Assembly: GCA_041170365.1 (NCBI GenBank)
Contig: JBEAYY010000026.1
Location: forward strand, 5,527-69,526
Length of the DNA stretch: 64,000 nt
Direction: 5' to 3'
Source of the DNA: Actinomycetota bacterium
GTDB lineage: Bacteria; Actinomycetota; Actinomycetes; S36-B12; UBA5976
Of the stretch, positions 5,194 to 37,647 are shown piece after piece (position 1 is the first letter of the stretch; every line of letters starts with the position of its first letter). The position numbers and the translations under genes are program-made. The notes beneath the pieces were generated by a model, which saw nothing but the letters and a program-made list of their open reading frames with translations, was not told the origin of the DNA and ran no database searches.

Positions 5194-5926
5194 AAACTCC
5201 AGAATCTTGATGATAAGCGTTTAAAGCTTCACTGAGTGTTCCATCTACTGCAAGTGTTCCTTTTCTTAAGTAAATTCCACGAGTACAAAACTCTTTCAAA
5301 TCTTTTTCTTTGTGAGAAACCAAAAATAAAGTTTTACCTTGATTTAATAAATCTTTCATTCTTATGTAGCACTTTTCTTTGAATGCAGCATCGCCTACTG
5401 CAAGTGCTTCATCTACTAAAATTATCGGTTCATCAATTGAAGTCACAATTGAAAATCCAAGTCTAATTTTCATGCCACTAGAAAAATGTCGTACAGGAGT
5501 ATCTAAAAAATCACCAATTTCAGCAAATTCCACAATATTGTTAAATCTTTTCTTGACTTCAGCTCTTGATAAACCATGTAATCCTGCAACCAAATAGATA
5601 TTGTCTCTTGCGGTTAAATCACTTTTTAGTCCCCCAGTTAATTCAATTAATGGTGCAACTCCACCAATAACTTTGGCAGTTCCTTCATCAGGAATAAGTA
5701 CACCCGCAATGATTCTTAATAAAGTACTTTTTCCTTGACCATTTGCTCCCATTAAGCCAACGGCTTCACCTTCATTTATTTGAAAATTGATATTTCTTAA
5801 AGCCCAAAAATCTCCCTTTGGAGAAGTGTTTTTTTGTTGCAGTAATAATTCACGAACTGAAAAGTTTCTTTTTCTATTTCTTTTAAAACTTATTCCCACA
5901 TTATTAACATCAATTACGATACTCAT
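5183..5926 (-). CDS. polysaccharide/teichoic-acid-type ABC exporter ATP-binding protein (Wzt/TagH-like)
   Basis: 247 aa. Walker A GANGQGKST, signature SSGM, Walker B ILVDEAL. There is no C-terminal glycan-binding extension. It overlaps the downstream gene by 11 nt. Confidence 0.9.
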   Translation of the reverse strand: MSIVIDVNNVGISFKRNRKRNFSVRELLLQQKNTSPKGDFWALRNINFQINEGEAVGLMGANGQGKSTLLRIIAGVLIPDEGTAKVIGGVAPLIELTGGLKSDLTARDNIYLVAGLHGLSRAEVKKRFNNIVEFAEIGDFLDTPVRHFSSGMKIRLGFSIVTSIDEPIILVDEALAVGDAAFKEKCYIRMKDLLNQGKTLFLVSHKEKDLKEFCTRGIYLRKGTLAVDGTLSEALNAYHQDSGVFDD

Positions 5927-34371: not shown

Positions 34372-35484
34372 TTATTCTGGATTTACTACTATTTCTATTC
34401 TTTGTAATTCTTTCAAGTCGCTATAACCTGTGGTAGCCATTGCTTTCTTCAAAGCACCAACAAGGTTTAAATTACCTTGAGCATTAGTGGAAGGTCCAAA
34501 TAAAATTTGTTCTAAAGTTCCAACTGTGCCAAGTTCTACAACTTGGCCTCTAGGTAAATCTTTATGCACAGCCTCTACACCCCAATGCTTACCAAGTCCA
34601 GGAGCTGAAGTTGATCTTGCAAGTGCAGAACCAATCATGACTGCATCTGCACCCATTGCAATTGCTTTACTAATGTCTCCGCTTTTTCCTATTGAGCCAT
34701 CTGCAATTACATGAACATACCTACCGCCAGATTCATCTAAATATTCTCTTCTGGCAGCTGCAACATCAGCAACTGCTGTTGCCATTGGAACTTTTACACC
34801 CAAAACATCTGATGTTGTGTGAGTTGCTCCTCCACCAAAACCAACCAAAACACCAGCTGCCCCAGTTCTCATTAAATGAAGAGCTGCTTGATGAGAAGCA
34901 CAACCTCCAACAATTACTGGCACATCAAGTTCATAAATAAAATTCTTTAAATTAATTGCTTCTTCAGTTTTGGAAACATGTTCAGCACTTACCGTTGTTC
35001 CTCTAATAACAAAAATATCAATTCCTGCATCAACTACAGATTTAAAATATTTACTAACAGATCTAGGTGATAAAGCTGCAGCTGCGATTACTCCAGCAGA
35101 TTTTATTTCTTTTATTCTTTCCTTAATTAATTCTGGTTTTATTTCTGCACTATATATTTGTTGTAATACTTGCACACCTGATTCAGATTTTGCATCTAAT
35201 ATTTTTTTAAATTCTTTTTTAGGATCTTCATAACGAGTCCATAATCCTTCAAGATTTAAAACCGCTAAGCCACCTAATTTGCCGTAATTAATAGCAACTT
35301 CCGGGGAAACCACAGAATCCATTGGTGCTGCCATGATGGGGAATTCAAATTCGTAGGCATCAATTTTCCAAGAGGTTGAAACTTCCTCAGGATTTCGAGT
35401 TCTTCTAGTTGGAACTAAAGCAATATCGTCAAAGGAATAGGCGATTCTGCCTCGTTTGGTTCCACCAATTTCTACTTCAGCCAC
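34372..35484 (-). CDS. guaB3: GuaB3-type IMP dehydrogenase-related protein (no CBS pair, no catalytic Cys loop)
   Basis: 370 aa TIM barrel of the IMPDH/GMPR family (PIMAAPMDSVV, IADGSIGKSGD). VGFGGGATHTT replaces the IGPGSICTT catalytic loop, as in actinobacterial GuaB3. Confidence 0.85.
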   Translation of the reverse strand: MAEVEIGGTKRGRIAYSFDDIALVPTRRTRNPEEVSTSWKIDAYEFEFPIMAAPMDSVVSPEVAINYGKLGGLAVLNLEGLWTRYEDPKKEFKKILDAKSESGVQVLQQIYSAEIKPELIKERIKEIKSAGVIAAAALSPRSVSKYFKSVVDAGIDIFVIRGTTVSAEHVSKTEEAINLKNFIYELDVPVIVGGCASHQAALHLMRTGAAGVLVGFGGGATHTTSDVLGVKVPMATAVADVAAARREYLDESGGRYVHVIADGSIGKSGDISKAIAMGADAVMIGSALARSTSAPGLGKHWGVEAVHKDLPRGQVVELGTVGTLEQILFGPSTNAQGNLNLVGALKKAMATTGYSDLKELQRIEIVVNPE

Positions 35485-35549: not shown

Positions 35550-36083
35550 TTAGGAAATATAGCCTTTGCGCAAGGCCTTTGCCACAGAATGAGTCCTATT
35601 TGCAGTTTTGAGTTTAATTCTGATTCTTCGCAGATGAGTCTTTATAGTGGCATCTTGAATTTTTAAATTATGAGCTAATTTTTTATTATTTAAGCCATGA
35701 CTAATTAGAAACAATATTTCTTTTTCTCTTTTGCTTAAAAGCTTTATTTTTACTTTATTTAATTTTAAGTTGAATAGTAACTCTTTTAATTCCTTTAAAT
35801 CTGCATCAAAATAAATCCTTGTATCATTTAATTTTTTAACTTCTTTTTTCAAAGTTAAAATAATAAACTTATACTTGTTTAAGATCTCTTTTTGCTCTTT
35901 GGTTAGCAAATTGAATAACTGCTGATTTATAAAAACAAGATCCATATTTATATTTTTTATATAGATAAAAGCTTCTCTTATATTTTTCACTAACACAATT
36001 TGTGATGGAATTTTTGTTAGTTGCAGTTTTCTGTGGATAATTTTTCTTCTGGATAAGTTTTCATCTATTACAATTATGTTCAT
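35550..36083 (-). CDS. LuxR-type HTH regulator with phosphoacceptor-less receiver-like N-domain
   Basis: 177 aa. C-terminal LSKREKEILFLISHGLNNKKLAHNLKIQDATIKTHLRRIRIKL is a LuxR/GerE HTH. The N-terminus resembles REC (IIVIDEN, MDLVFIN) but has N53 where the phospho-Asp should be. It is strikingly AT-rich. Confidence 0.75.
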   Translation of the reverse strand: MNIIVIDENLSRRKIIHRKLQLTKIPSQIVLVKNIREAFIYIKNINMDLVFINQQLFNLLTKEQKEILNKYKFIILTLKKEVKKLNDTRIYFDADLKELKELLFNLKLNKVKIKLLSKREKEILFLISHGLNNKKLAHNLKIQDATIKTHLRRIRIKLKTANRTHSVAKALRKGYIS

Positions 36084-36119
36084 GATTCTTCAGACGAATC
36101 ATGTAATCTTTAAGTTTCT

Positions 36120-37193
36120 TTATAAACCTACTGAATTTGTTATTGCGGTTATGGTGCTAGTTAAATCACTGCTTCTTTTAAAATTACTTGGTAATTGCAT
36201 TGGCCAACCAGGACCTGCCACAAGCATTAAAGGACTTGGTCTTAAATGGCTTAAGTTTTCTAATTCAGGATCGATATTTTTAACAGGAATTTGTGCCCAA
36301 ATCAAAACCGCTGCAGGAGCTAGTCTTTTCACAGCATTTATTAAAGAAGAATATGGAACTCTTGCTCCTAAGACTTTGGAACTAATTCTTCTTTCAGCTA
36401 ACGCTGCTGCTGTCACATATTGCGGAATAGTGTGTAATTCATCAGGAGCAGATGCAGTAATAACAGGTCTTATGTTTACTGGTGCAATTAATTGATCTGC
36501 ACGAAGTCGCATTTGACCAATAATTGCTTCACTTAGAACATGTTCTGCTTCTATGCCTTCTCCTGTTTGTTCCCATTTAGCACCAATTGCAATTAAAACT
36601 TTTGAAATTAAATTTTCCCAAGTCCAAATAACACCTCGAGAATTAATACTTGCCCCAATTATTTGATTACAAGATTGGTTATCCATTGATTGAGCAGCTT
36701 TAGCAAGACCACGCGCTGCACTGGATGCTCCTTCCATTGATAAAACTTGACCACCACCTGGATGACCAAATTTTTCAGCGTGATCAAGGGTTTTAACTAA
36801 ATTTTCAATTTTGCTACTTAAAGAATTTGGATCAACTGGTGAAATGTTGGAAATATTTTCAACCTTGGTGCTCAAAGCAACTTTGGCAGCTTCTCCTGCG
36901 GGCATGCCTGATAAAACTAACTTTCGCATAATTTCTAAACGGGCTATATCTGTGATGCAATAGCGACGATGCCCACCTTGGGATCTATCTGTGGGGCAAA
37001 GGCCATATCGGCGCTCCCAGGTTCTCAAGGTCGCTGGAGCAACCCCCACACGCCTTGCCACCACGGCCACGGTAAGGCCCAGGGTGATGACGTTTTCTTC
37101 CTCAGGATTTAAACCCATGAGCATATTGTTCCCCAAGTGAACAACTTTGGCTAATCGAGGCTTTAGTGAGAGCGACTTCACAAAATTAGTCAT
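36120..37193 (-). CDS. MerR-family regulator with CarH/LitR-like B12-binding sensor module
   Basis: MerR HTH (TLRTWERRYGL...GGHRRY). W207-x9-E217-H218 (GAKWEQTGEGIEAEH), and E252-L-H254-T-I-P in the ExHxxG position, followed by a Rossmann-like segment. It is colinear by eye with Thermus CarH. The start could instead be M24/M26 (about 37124). Confidence 0.8.
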   Translation of the reverse strand: MTNFVKSLSLKPRLAKVVHLGNNMLMGLNPEEENVITLGLTVAVVARRVGVAPATLRTWERRYGLCPTDRSQGGHRRYCITDIARLEIMRKLVLSGMPAGEAAKVALSTKVENISNISPVDPNSLSSKIENLVKTLDHAEKFGHPGGGQVLSMEGASSAARGLAKAAQSMDNQSCNQIIGASINSRGVIWTWENLISKVLIAIGAKWEQTGEGIEAEHVLSEAIIGQMRLRADQLIAPVNIRPVITASAPDELHTIPQYVTAAALAERRISSKVLGARVPYSSLINAVKRLAPAAVLIWAQIPVKNIDPELENLSHLRPSPLMLVAGPGWPMQLPSNFKRSSDLTSTITAITNSVGL

Positions 37194-37202
37194 TAGGGGT
37201 GA

Positions 37203-37232
37203 TTGACCAAGTTATGAACAATTTTGTATATT
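37203..37232 (+). promoter_or_regulatory. putative sigma-70-type promoter of whiB (TTGACC-18 nt-TATATT)
   Basis: TTGACC at 37203-37208 and TATATT at 37227-37232, 38 nt upstream of the whiB ATG, within the 76-nt divergent region shared with the litR-like gene. Confidence 0.45.
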
Positions 37233-37269
37233 TAGATAAAGAAAGCTTTAGCAAAGGATTTATCTCAAA

Positions 37270-37569
37270 ATGGCTGACATAACCAGACTTCCTGGACCTA
37301 ATGCCGATCTTTGGGATTGGCAATTAAAAGGTGCTTGCCGTGGTGAAGATCCAGAAATCTTCTTTCACCCTGAAGGTGAGCGCGGACCTGCTCGCGAGCA
37401 AAGAATTGCTCTTGCGAAATCTATTTGTGCAACATGTCCTGTTTTAAAACAATGTGCAGCACATGCTCTAGAAGTTAGAGAACCATACGGTGTGTGGGGT
37501 GCGATGAGTGAAGATGATCGCGAAGCAATCTATGCACCAGTTAAAGAATCAATGCCAGTAGCTGGCTAA
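37270..37569 (+). CDS. whiB: WhiB-family Fe-S transcriptional regulator (WhiB3/WhiD-like)
   Basis: 99 aa. LPGPNADLWDWQLKGACRG...FFHPEGERG...C-x2-C-x5-C and GVWGAM. The N-terminus closely matches WhiB3/WhiD. Confidence 0.95.
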   Translation: MADITRLPGPNADLWDWQLKGACRGEDPEIFFHPEGERGPAREQRIALAKSICATCPVLKQCAAHALEVREPYGVWGAMSEDDREAIYAPVKESMPVAG

Positions 37570-37601
37570 CAAAACTTACCCTTCATAACCCTCCAAAAAA
37601 T

Positions 37602-37631
37602 AAGGGCTCTTGAATAAAATCAAGAGCCCTT
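37602..37631. terminator. bidirectional intrinsic terminator hairpin
   Basis: 12-bp perfect stem AAGGGCTCTTGA/TCAAGAGCCCTT with a 6-nt loop. A T6 run follows on the minus strand (downstream of the aldolase-SDR gene) and a T5 run lies nearby on the plus strand (downstream of whiB). Confidence 0.8.
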
Positions 37632-37647
37632 AAAACTTTTTATAAAT

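Follow-up and report, generated by a model that had tools for sequence, protein, structure and literature searches.

A CarH/LitR homolog with an altered B12 motif encoded divergently from whiB3 in a planktonic actinobacterium and its relatives

A 64,000-nucleotide stretch of an Actinomycetota bacterium genome (the window; positions 5,527 to 69,526 of contig JBEAYY010000026.1, assembly GCA_041170365.1) carries a gene, merR, for a regulator that combines a MerR-type DNA-binding domain with a module like that of the cobalamin photoreceptors CarH and LitR. An earlier sequence-only reading of this DNA had placed merR between two other open reading frames, and all three were confirmed at their coordinates. 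The longest frame of merR (36120-37193, minus strand) encodes 357 residues. It is divergent from a whiB gene (37270-37569, plus strand; 99 residues with Cys23, Cys53, Cys56, and Cys62) that we identify below as a whiB3/whiD ortholog, and it is followed by a gene for a LuxR/GerE-type regulator with a degenerate receiver domain (35550-36083, minus strand; 177 residues) and by a GuaB3-family gene (34372-35484, minus strand; 558 bits against TIGR01304). The window as a whole is AT-rich, with a GC content of 32 to 40% throughout and about 35% on average.

Pfam, phmmer, profile, and AlphaFold2/Foldseek comparisons agree with the proposal that the merR product joins a MerR helix-turn-helix (HTH) to a CarH-like sensor. 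The single sequence matched Pfam MerR_1 significantly (E = 4.7e-13), with matches to B12-binding_2 and B12-binding in colinear order behind it. A phmmer search of the PDB with the same sequence retrieved Thermus thermophilus CarH (TtCarH, 5C8D; E = 3e-14) in two stretches, and the HMMER alignment placed W207, E217, H218, and H254 of the regulator on CarH W131, E141, H142, and H177 ("igakWeqtgegieaEH" against "vgeaWhrgeigvaeEH" and "asapdElHtip" against "ttppgErHeig"). The colinearity with Thermus CarH that had been noted by eye is thereby borne out for the four cofactor-contacting residues. For profile comparisons we took the 120 best database homologs (42-97% identity), 117 of them full-length and used for the profile and for the scoring of invariant residues. 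This profile matched CarH in the PDB at E = 1.6e-25, with an alignment that takes in the DNA-binding domain and all of the cobalamin-binding domain; the latter alone matched CarH over its full length at E = 2.6e-10. The only other proteins with a cobalamin-binding domain that it matched were of the photoreceptor type, namely CtMerR (8JBS) and the photocobilins 8J2W/X/Y, and no MetH or mutase domain was matched in the profile search of the PDB. Most of the 120 homologs carry both B12 domains in precomputed Pfam annotation, and a few have already been tagged "light-induced transcriptional regulator" by the JGI/KEGG pipelines.

The AlphaFold2 model, computed from the homolog alignment, has a mean predicted local distance difference test (pLDDT) score of 86.8 and folds into a winged helix, a four-helix bundle, and a Rossmann domain with five strands. 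The 50 best Foldseek matches in the PDB were TtCarH (dark, DNA-bound, and light states), CtMerR, and one photocobilin, with target-normalized template modeling scores of up to 0.81 for the cobalamin-binding domain against TtCarH. On these sequence and model comparisons, the regulator almost certainly belongs to the CarH/LitR family as a homolog.

The winged HTH spans residues 39-105 (36879-37079, minus strand; Pfam MerR_1) and contains R57-T-W-E-R-R-Y63, an instance of the RxWERRY recognition-helix motif that is common to CarH and CarA (Pérez-Castaño et al.). A subfamily-specific insertion with a conserved GGG-x-V loop occupies residues 109-157 (36723-36869, minus strand) at the junction of the HTH and the bundle. 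The four-helix bundle, delimited by the model and the HMMER alignment, comprises residues 158-233 (36495-36722, minus strand) with helices at 158-168, 172-186, 188-210, and 214-233; helices 3 and 4 hold G204-x-x-W207 and E217-H218, and with them an intact Wx9EH motif (W207-x9-E217-H218). The Rossmann domain of the cobalamin-binding type (residues 241-357; 36123-36473, minus strand) carries E252-x-H254-x-x-P257, W299-x-Q301, and A326-G327-P-G-W330. The residues first picked out as motif members, W207, E217, H218, E252, H254, and P257, thus all stand at the positions assigned to them.

Among the 117 full-length homologs, W207, E217, H218, H254, P257, W299, G327, G329, and W330 are invariant and P328 is nearly so. 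An exhaustive profile search at E<=1e-30, clustered at 50% identity, gave 797 cluster representatives, that is, a subfamily of about 800 clusters, and conservation was read from the best 149 of these. At this depth E217 and H218 are each retained in 96% of the representatives, H254 in 95%, and P257 in 89%; W207 (82%) and W299 (83%) are otherwise mostly replaced by aromatic residues, and position 326 is Gly in 62%, which restores the "GG" element. The HTH residues R57, W59, R62, and Y63 are conserved in at least 95%. The HTH protein sequence GLTVAxVARRxGVAPATLRTWxRRYG is almost invariant family-wide, pointing to unusually strong constraint, and the stretch that encodes this domain (36900-37080) has a GC content of 55% within a 35% GC genome. 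In three longer representatives, P0154 (572 residues), P0266 (627 residues), and P0268 (665 residues), the CarH-like part is C-terminal; these may be fusions or products of mis-called starts.

The published CarH B12 motif reads D/ExHx2G/P-x41-SxT/V-x22-27-GG, and the version in the regulator, E252-x-H254-x2-P257-x41-W299-x-Q301-x24-A326-G327, has equal spacings. The Gly-to-Pro change after the His, once listed as a deviation from CarH, was dropped because the published motif permits either residue; the real departure is the Ser-to-Trp change at W299. The other deviation stood: a linker longer by about 50 residues separates the HTH from the bundle, corresponding to residues 109-157, which are missing from TtCarH in the HMMER alignments. 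G147, G148, and V150 within it are nearly invariant in the homolog alignments, and the model shows a helix at 122-135 followed by a lower-confidence loop. The SignatureFinder signature of B12 photoreceptors consists of GxxW, EH, GxxH, and GxxxP (Yu et al. 2024); the regulator has the GxxW, the EH, and the axial His, and the Gly of GxxH is an Asp/Glu (D251). The residue after the motif Trp is Glu or Ala in the subfamily, at the place of TtCarH His132, the light-state upper ligand.

The divergent neighbor was compared with the Wbl proteins of known structure. The Mycobacterium tuberculosis WhiB3 structures 8cwr/8cyf scored best by far (E = 2.7e-35, 124 bits), ahead of WhiB1 (1.6e-18, 70 bits), WhiB4 and WhiB (both ∼4.5e-10), and WhiB7 (5e-8), and the Pfam Whib domain was found at E = 6.7e-26 together with the YGVWGA turn and the four Cys residues. 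These properties and a groEL/guaB synteny like that in other actinobacteria sustain the assignment of the neighbor as WhiB3/WhiD-type, WhiD being the accepted WhiB3 ortholog. The WhiB3 proteins of the window clade end in ...AIYAPVKESMPVAG (37528-37569) and lack the Arg/Lys-rich C-terminal tail of their GC-rich relatives (e.g., RRRIPAPR and KSRKRQLALT; loci L003, L014, L057, and L066 were compared); because this basic tail is missing, their DNA contacts may differ.

To follow the gene pair across genomes, species-representative genomes were scanned, which yielded at least 503 relatives from the first 600 candidate stretches; the best 80 loci were studied, and neighbors were located by tblastn with marker proteins. 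A divergent whiB gene was present in 80/80 loci with sufficient upstream sequence, in lineages that include Nanopelagicales metagenome-assembled genomes (MAGs), Motilibacter, Saccharothrix, Umezawaea, Actinosynnema, and Goodfellowiella. Several MAG records in which the locus occurs carry the titles Bifidobacterium breve, Rubrivirga sp., Actinomyces sp., or Bifidobacterium sp. (L007 and L045, i.e., CAMATO010000057 and CAMCSO010000065, as well as L019, L038, and L054) and are evidently mislabeled taxonomically, the locus itself being planktonic-actinobacterial. The shared layout is groEL, whiB on one strand, and then on the other merR with its cobalamin-binding domain, an optional tetratricopeptide repeat (TPR)-like gene of 300 codons, an optional NarL-type response regulator gene, guaB, and guaB3. 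In the 76 loci with sufficient downstream sequence, a response-regulator/LuxR gene stood ahead of guaB in 41 (54%), the TPR-like gene was found in 36, and guaB or guaB3 directly followed the regulator in 28. The proposed survey of a conserved litR-whiB-luxR neighborhood came out positive on the whiB side and mixed on the luxR side.

The strict whiB-merR adjacency is notable because the outer flanks rearrange often. In the window an aldolase/short-chain dehydrogenase/reductase (SDR) fusion gene, an MtnA-like isomerase gene, and a CopC-domain gene lie between whiB and groEL; in one close relative (L001) genes for transketolase subunits and a RuBisCO-like protein are next to whiB. The window has no guaB between the regulator and guaB3 and no guaA after guaB3; L001 (6001-11264), on a 1.1-Mb contig, keeps both guaB and guaA but is without the LuxR-type gene. 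The gene of about 300 codons called TPR-like here, which separates the regulator gene from the response regulator gene in 36 loci (7204-8109 in L003), shows only faint TPR similarity and falls in no Pfam or NCBIfam family; its product is a candidate partner or antirepressor.

The extent of the control region depends on where merR starts. Six close relatives (L001 and L004-L008), whose regulators are ∼64-81% identical at the protein level, were aligned over the whiB-merR interval. The DNA under codons 1-25 of the 357-residue frame (37119-37193, minus strand) is highly conserved in all of them, yet the matching segment of L004 has two in-frame TAG codons, and all six use an ATG or GTG further into the frame as the start of the gene. 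A -10-like hexamer precedes this later start by 6-7 nt in each (GAGAAT or GAAAAT; AACAAT in the window), and residues 1-33 of the AlphaFold2 model have pLDDT values below 50. For these reasons we moved the probable start to M26 (ATG, 37118-37116), from which the gene (36120-37118, minus strand) would encode 332 residues plus a stop on a leaderless mRNA. The protein is thus probably shorter than the 357 residues first given, and codons 1-25 are probably promoter/operator DNA. With the M26 start, the control region shared by whiB3 and merR is not 76 bp, as had been read, and measures 151 bp (37119-37269); in the close-relative alignment it is more conserved than the first merR codons.

Within this region the best predicted promoter site is that of whiB3 (37203-37232, plus strand), TTGACC-18 nt-TATATT, with 10/12 consensus matches. 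When 73 loci were anchored on the -35 box, this box, the entire spacer, and the -10 region proved strongly conserved, with the consensus CTTGACCAAC.T.TGA..CG.TT in whiB orientation, and a more weakly conserved TGAACAA..TT..TG was evident 10 nt upstream of the -35 box. TT[GA]GTCAA was present in 56/82 loci, and 20 loci had TGAA[CT]A at position +18 relative to the -35 anchor. The predicted merR promoter (37125-37154, minus strand) has a -35 element TTAGCC (37149-37154), an 18-nt spacer, and a -10 element AACAAT (37125-37130). The M26 ATG lies 7 nt past this predicted -10 element, which suggests that the merR mRNA is leaderless, and the same layout of xAxAAT, 6-7 nt, and ATG/GTG recurs in the six close relatives and in many GC-rich loci.

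In CarH operators, an 11-bp direct repeat, nnnnTnnACAn, recurs three to four times in tandem across the -35 or -10 element, and TGAACA matches TnnACA, the core of this repeat. Two TGAACAAYTTTG copies occur in the window and make up a direct-repeat family, D2: TGAACAATTTTG in the whiB3 promoter spacer (37215-37226, plus strand) and, 77 bp away and 92% identical, TGAACAACTTTG between the predicted -35 and -10 elements of merR (37138-37149, plus strand). The second box is invariant across the close-relative alignment, and of the four matches to AARTTGTTCA in the 64 kb two fall in the shared control region. An inverted repeat, I1, of 14-nt arms with 86% complementarity (left arm ACAAAATTAGTCAT, 37180-37193; right arm 37214-37227) brackets the whiB3 -35 box. 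The 14-mer ATGAMYAATTTTGT matches exactly in the 64 kb only at both I1 arms; with one mismatch it has four matches, a number that 0/100 shuffles reached. A conserved block, TGACTAATTTTGTGAAGTCGCTCTCAC (37166-37192, minus strand), occupies the place that the TGAACAAnTTnTGAA tandem boxes take in other lineages, and TGAACAANTTNTGAA, with an 11-bp period, gave 10 matches in 83 loci (∼0.75 Mb), all of them inside the whiB-merR intergenic region. From these sequence patterns, we infer that the TGAACA-type boxes are candidate operators of the regulator. A canonical CarH operator in the shared region is not claimed, as the strict 11-bp scan was too sparse; the looser TGAACAAnTTnTGAA pattern, which occurs in tandem at 11 bp in 10 loci, was the informative one. 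A palindrome in the merR promoter, TTGTTCACTTGGGGAACAA (37126-37144), is specific to the window and absent in relatives, and it was given no weight.

The arrangement also differs from that of classical MerR-type activators (MerR, CueR, and SoxR). This type of control was rejected because the predicted spacers are 18 nt rather than 19-20 bp and the dyad lies at the -35 edge rather than in mid-spacer; in addition, the C-terminal part of the regulator is a CarH-type two-domain module and not a coiled-coil dimerization helix.

The LuxR-type gene downstream had been proposed as the second output of a cascade from light and B12. Its product has a GerE HTH (E = 5.9e-14), as the label implied, and matches Response_reg only at E = 0.084; over its full length it aligns with the 203-residue NarL-type regulator of L003 (BLASTP, E = 3e-8, 20% identity), in which the phospho-acceptor motif is "LMD". 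The window has "FIN" at this place, with the Asp replaced by Asn, so that the protein is a pseudo-receiver relative of the NarL/FixJ response regulators and not a working two-component regulator. The GC content is 25% for this gene, 41% for merR, and 46% for whiB; this low value and the degenerate receiver suggest relaxed or rapid evolution of the regulator at this position in the low-GC clade. By its position between whiB3/whiD and guaB, its LuxR-type pseudo-receiver architecture, and an extracytoplasmic function (ECF) sigma-like element, the gene resembles bldM of Streptomyces, which encodes an atypical orphan response regulator and is transcribed by the ECF sigma factor BldN; the comparison is one of position and description. 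In Streptomyces, bldM adjoins whiD.

No terminator was found in the 36-nt gap between merR and the LuxR-type gene. The gap contains GAAAC-N17-CGTC (36093-36118, minus strand), a candidate ECF-sigma-type promoter. Its parts GAAAC(T/C)TT and (T)CGTC recur in the window, L004, L005, L006, and L007 and less closely in L008; the element could give the LuxR-type gene its own transcript with a start near the ATG. A hairpin at 36081-36103 with a perfect 8-bp stem, CATGATTC-GTCTGAA-GAATCATG on the mRNA strand, spans this ATG and could hinder the start of translation; L004-L008 show no obvious conservation of it. An operon of merR and the LuxR-type gene as the basis of a cascade is weakened by the ECF-like element, by the presence of the gene in 41/76 loci, and by the direct succession of guaB in 28. 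Because of this apparent promoter of its own and its occurrence in 54% of loci, the link to the sensor is weak, and the gene is most likely a separately transcribed BldM-like neighbor rather than an obligatory part of the circuit. Of the cascade envisaged in the sequence-only reading, the pairing with whiB held up, in 80/80 loci, and the LuxR arm is weak. On the other side of the locus, whiB3 and the aldolase/SDR gene converge on a hairpin with a 13-bp stem (37601-37632) that has T-runs on either strand and is likely a bidirectional terminator.

Set against the characterized CarH proteins (T. thermophilus, Myxococcus xanthus, and Bacillus megaterium) and LitR proteins (Streptomyces coelicolor and Thermus), the regulator has the same MerR, four-helix, and Rossmann modules and the RxWERRY, Wx9EH, and ExHxxP motifs with an aligned axial His, in the PDB its closest match, whether judged by sequence or by fold, is from this group, and TnnACA-type boxes lie at the promoter in its shared region. 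It differs from CarH in being only ∼21% identical to it, in the 50-residue insertion, the Trp in place of the SxT/V Ser, and the C-terminal G-P-G-W, in the Glu/Ala at the TtCarH His132 position, and in boxes that are not a simple run of three to four tandem 11-bp repeats. The partner gene here is whiB3 and not a set of carotenoid genes or an ECF sigma factor gene. In the LitR/litS pair, the neighbor of LitR is reportedly itself a transcription regulator, as whiB3 is. CtMerR of Chloracidobacterium thermophilum (8JBS/8JBT) matches the family profile at E = 4e-14 and shares GxxW, EH, and the axial His, but it retains the motif Ser, and the Gly of its GxxH is D251 in the regulator. WhiB3 of M. tuberculosis and WhiD of Streptomyces are redox-responsive [4Fe-4S] regulators that bind sigma-A; the whiB gene of the window is their ortholog in the same chromosomal block, distinguished in its clade by the lack of the basic tail. 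We know of no MerR/CarH-type gene described beside whiB3 or whiD in M. tuberculosis or Streptomyces.

These likenesses lead to a working model in which the regulator is an adenosylcobalamin (AdoCbl)-dependent, light-relieved repressor of whiB3 and of itself. AdoCbl taken up from the water would bind base-off/His-on at H254 and be capped by W207, E217, and H218; in the dark the AdoCbl-bound regulator would oligomerize, its MerR-type domains would occupy the TGAACA-type boxes at the -35 element and spacer of whiB3 and in the spacer of its own promoter, and both promoters would be repressed. Green or UV light would then cleave the Co-C bond and disassemble the oligomer, derepressing whiB3 and the regulator gene, so that light and B12 supply would feed into WhiB3, an Fe-S redox regulator acting on RNA polymerase sigma-A. 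Repression fits as the mode of control because the whiB3 promoter is near consensus (10/12, 18-nt spacer). The setting is also suitable: the acI bacteria, inhabitants of the photic zone that carry green-absorbing rhodopsins, do not synthesize B12 but possess putative cobalamin transporters under riboswitch control, and salvage of cobinamide is open to some Planktophila strains. Our confidence differs between the parts of this scheme. That whiB3 is a target of the regulator is probable; that the regulator responds to light is an even call; and the complete model of an AdoCbl-dependent, light-relieved repressor is in our view the best explanation, held at about even odds.

Several observations weigh against the model. 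The single sequence fell, narrowly, below the Pfam cut-offs for B12-binding_2 (residues 161-224, E = 0.0023, 18.5 bits against 23) and for B12-binding (residues 244-300, E = 0.019, 15.2 bits against 32.1), the two domains predicted in the sequence-only reading, which were recovered at the profile and structure levels. The regulator scored 73.2 bits against the NCBIfam CarH equivalog model NF052513, far under the cut-off of 400, and is therefore a homolog and not an equivalog of characterized CarH. The conserved Trp in place of the Ser and the Gln in place of the T/V of the SxT/V element could change the nucleotide-tail pocket or obstruct it, and an insertion of about 50 residues found only in this subfamily sits between the HTH and the helical bundle. 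The operator evidence is likewise imperfect. DNA conservation peaks at the whiB3 promoter itself and could reflect another factor; TnnACA in tandem at exactly 11 bp gave five pairs, in 4-5/82 intergenic regions where 0.3 were expected, and no such strict pair in the window, whose boxes are spaced by 38-39 and 77 bp or are degenerate, a geometry unlike that of characterized CarH operators. No carotenoid, photolyase, or rhodopsin genes were found among the flanking genes, and an Rfam scan of the window revealed no cobalamin riboswitch, nor any other family above threshold. More broadly, Pfam searches with 20 flanking genes of the window identified housekeeping genes only, with no light or B12 genes; the regulator is surrounded by whiB3, the pseudo-response-regulator gene, guaB3, groESL, and housekeeping genes, and so lacks the association with carotenoid genes or with a sigma factor of the litS type that is typical, if not strictly diagnostic, of CarH/LitR.

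Some of these points would also be explained if the C-terminal domain no longer used B12 and the protein were a constitutive or protein-controlled repressor of whiB3, as in CarA, the B12-independent paralog of CarH in M. xanthus. CarA has the same domain order and recognition-helix motif, keeps the B12 motif, and is controlled by the antirepressor CarS; here, correspondingly, the domain might serve for oligomerization or respond to an antirepressor, perhaps the TPR-like protein, or to another ligand. The changes at W299 and Q301, the sub-threshold Pfam matches, and the TPR-like gene behind the regulator in 36/76 loci are in keeping with such a role. Yet CarA has lost the Wx9EH Trp and four flanking residues, whereas in the regulator W207 and its flanks are present and conserved, and the deep family keeps Wx9EH and the axial His with little or no variation, a conservation that is hard to explain without a corrinoid bearing an upper ligand; moreover, the window and 40/76 loci have no TPR gene. 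We consider a B12-independent function of this kind fairly unlikely.

A corrinoid could be bound without light being the signal. If the holo-protein repressed and the apo-protein did not, whiB3 would report cobalamin status and light would be incidental, a notion congenial to the Nanopelagicales, which cannot make B12 and rely on uptake, to the lack of photoprotection genes nearby, and to the occurrence of members in the soil genera Saccharothrix and Umezawaea. A Wx9EH cap that contacts the 5'-deoxyadenosyl group, however, is a hallmark of photoreceptor-type domains, AdoCbl so bound is intrinsically photolabile, so that the two inputs are hard to separate, and bacteria usually sense B12 by riboswitches, which acI has; sensing of B12 availability alone seems to us quite improbable. 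Much the same small chance attaches to the idea that the gene order is inherited and has no regulatory meaning, the regulator controlling itself, the downstream genes (LuxR-type or guaB), or distant targets. The groEL-whiB3-...-guaB-guaB3 block is indeed ancient and conserved, and the strongest DNA conservation is that of a promoter, which sigma-factor recognition alone could explain; this account has to reckon with an adjacency kept in 80/80 loci despite rearrangement on both outer flanks and with TGAACA-type boxes beside and within the whiB3 promoter.

The CarH family itself is well established, and annotation pipelines already tag some of its members as LitR-like. What is new is a large, motif-distinct subfamily (ExHxxP...WxQ...GPGW plus the insertion), its universal pairing with whiB3/whiD in the examined loci, and its retention in streamlined plankton that are poor in regulators. 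In the part of the literature covered, we found no paper that links CarH/LitR to whiB or places them in Nanopelagicales, which is a weak negative. We advance tentatively, and with somewhat less than even confidence, the view that this is an unstudied branch of CarH with a fixed link to whiB3/whiD in many Actinomycetes, among them the acI bacteria that dominate freshwater plankton.

WhiB3/WhiD has a central place in redox and developmental control and is needed for virulence of M. tuberculosis and for normal sporulation of Streptomyces; to our knowledge, the inputs that set its transcription are poorly known in most actinobacteria. A conserved CarH-type sensor at the whiB3 promoter region would add a light/B12 input to this node, and if the branch does have such a fixed link to whiB3/whiD, the amount of an Fe-S redox regulator that binds sigma-A would depend directly on light, on the supply of cobamides, or on both. 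The conserved Ser-to-Trp change in the nucleotide-tail pocket and the extra GGG loop could mean a preference for another cobamide, such as cyanobacterial pseudocobalamin or a tail-less corrinoid, or alternatively a photochemistry unlike that of CarH, and the altered B12 motif could widen the range of cobalamin photoreceptor chemistries for optogenetics. Because cultured carriers exist (Saccharothrix, Umezawaea, Motilibacter, and Planktophila), the hypothesis can be tested directly. For the genome-streamlined acI bacteria, which have few regulators and yet have kept this one, it would represent a testable route of light signaling besides the rhodopsins.

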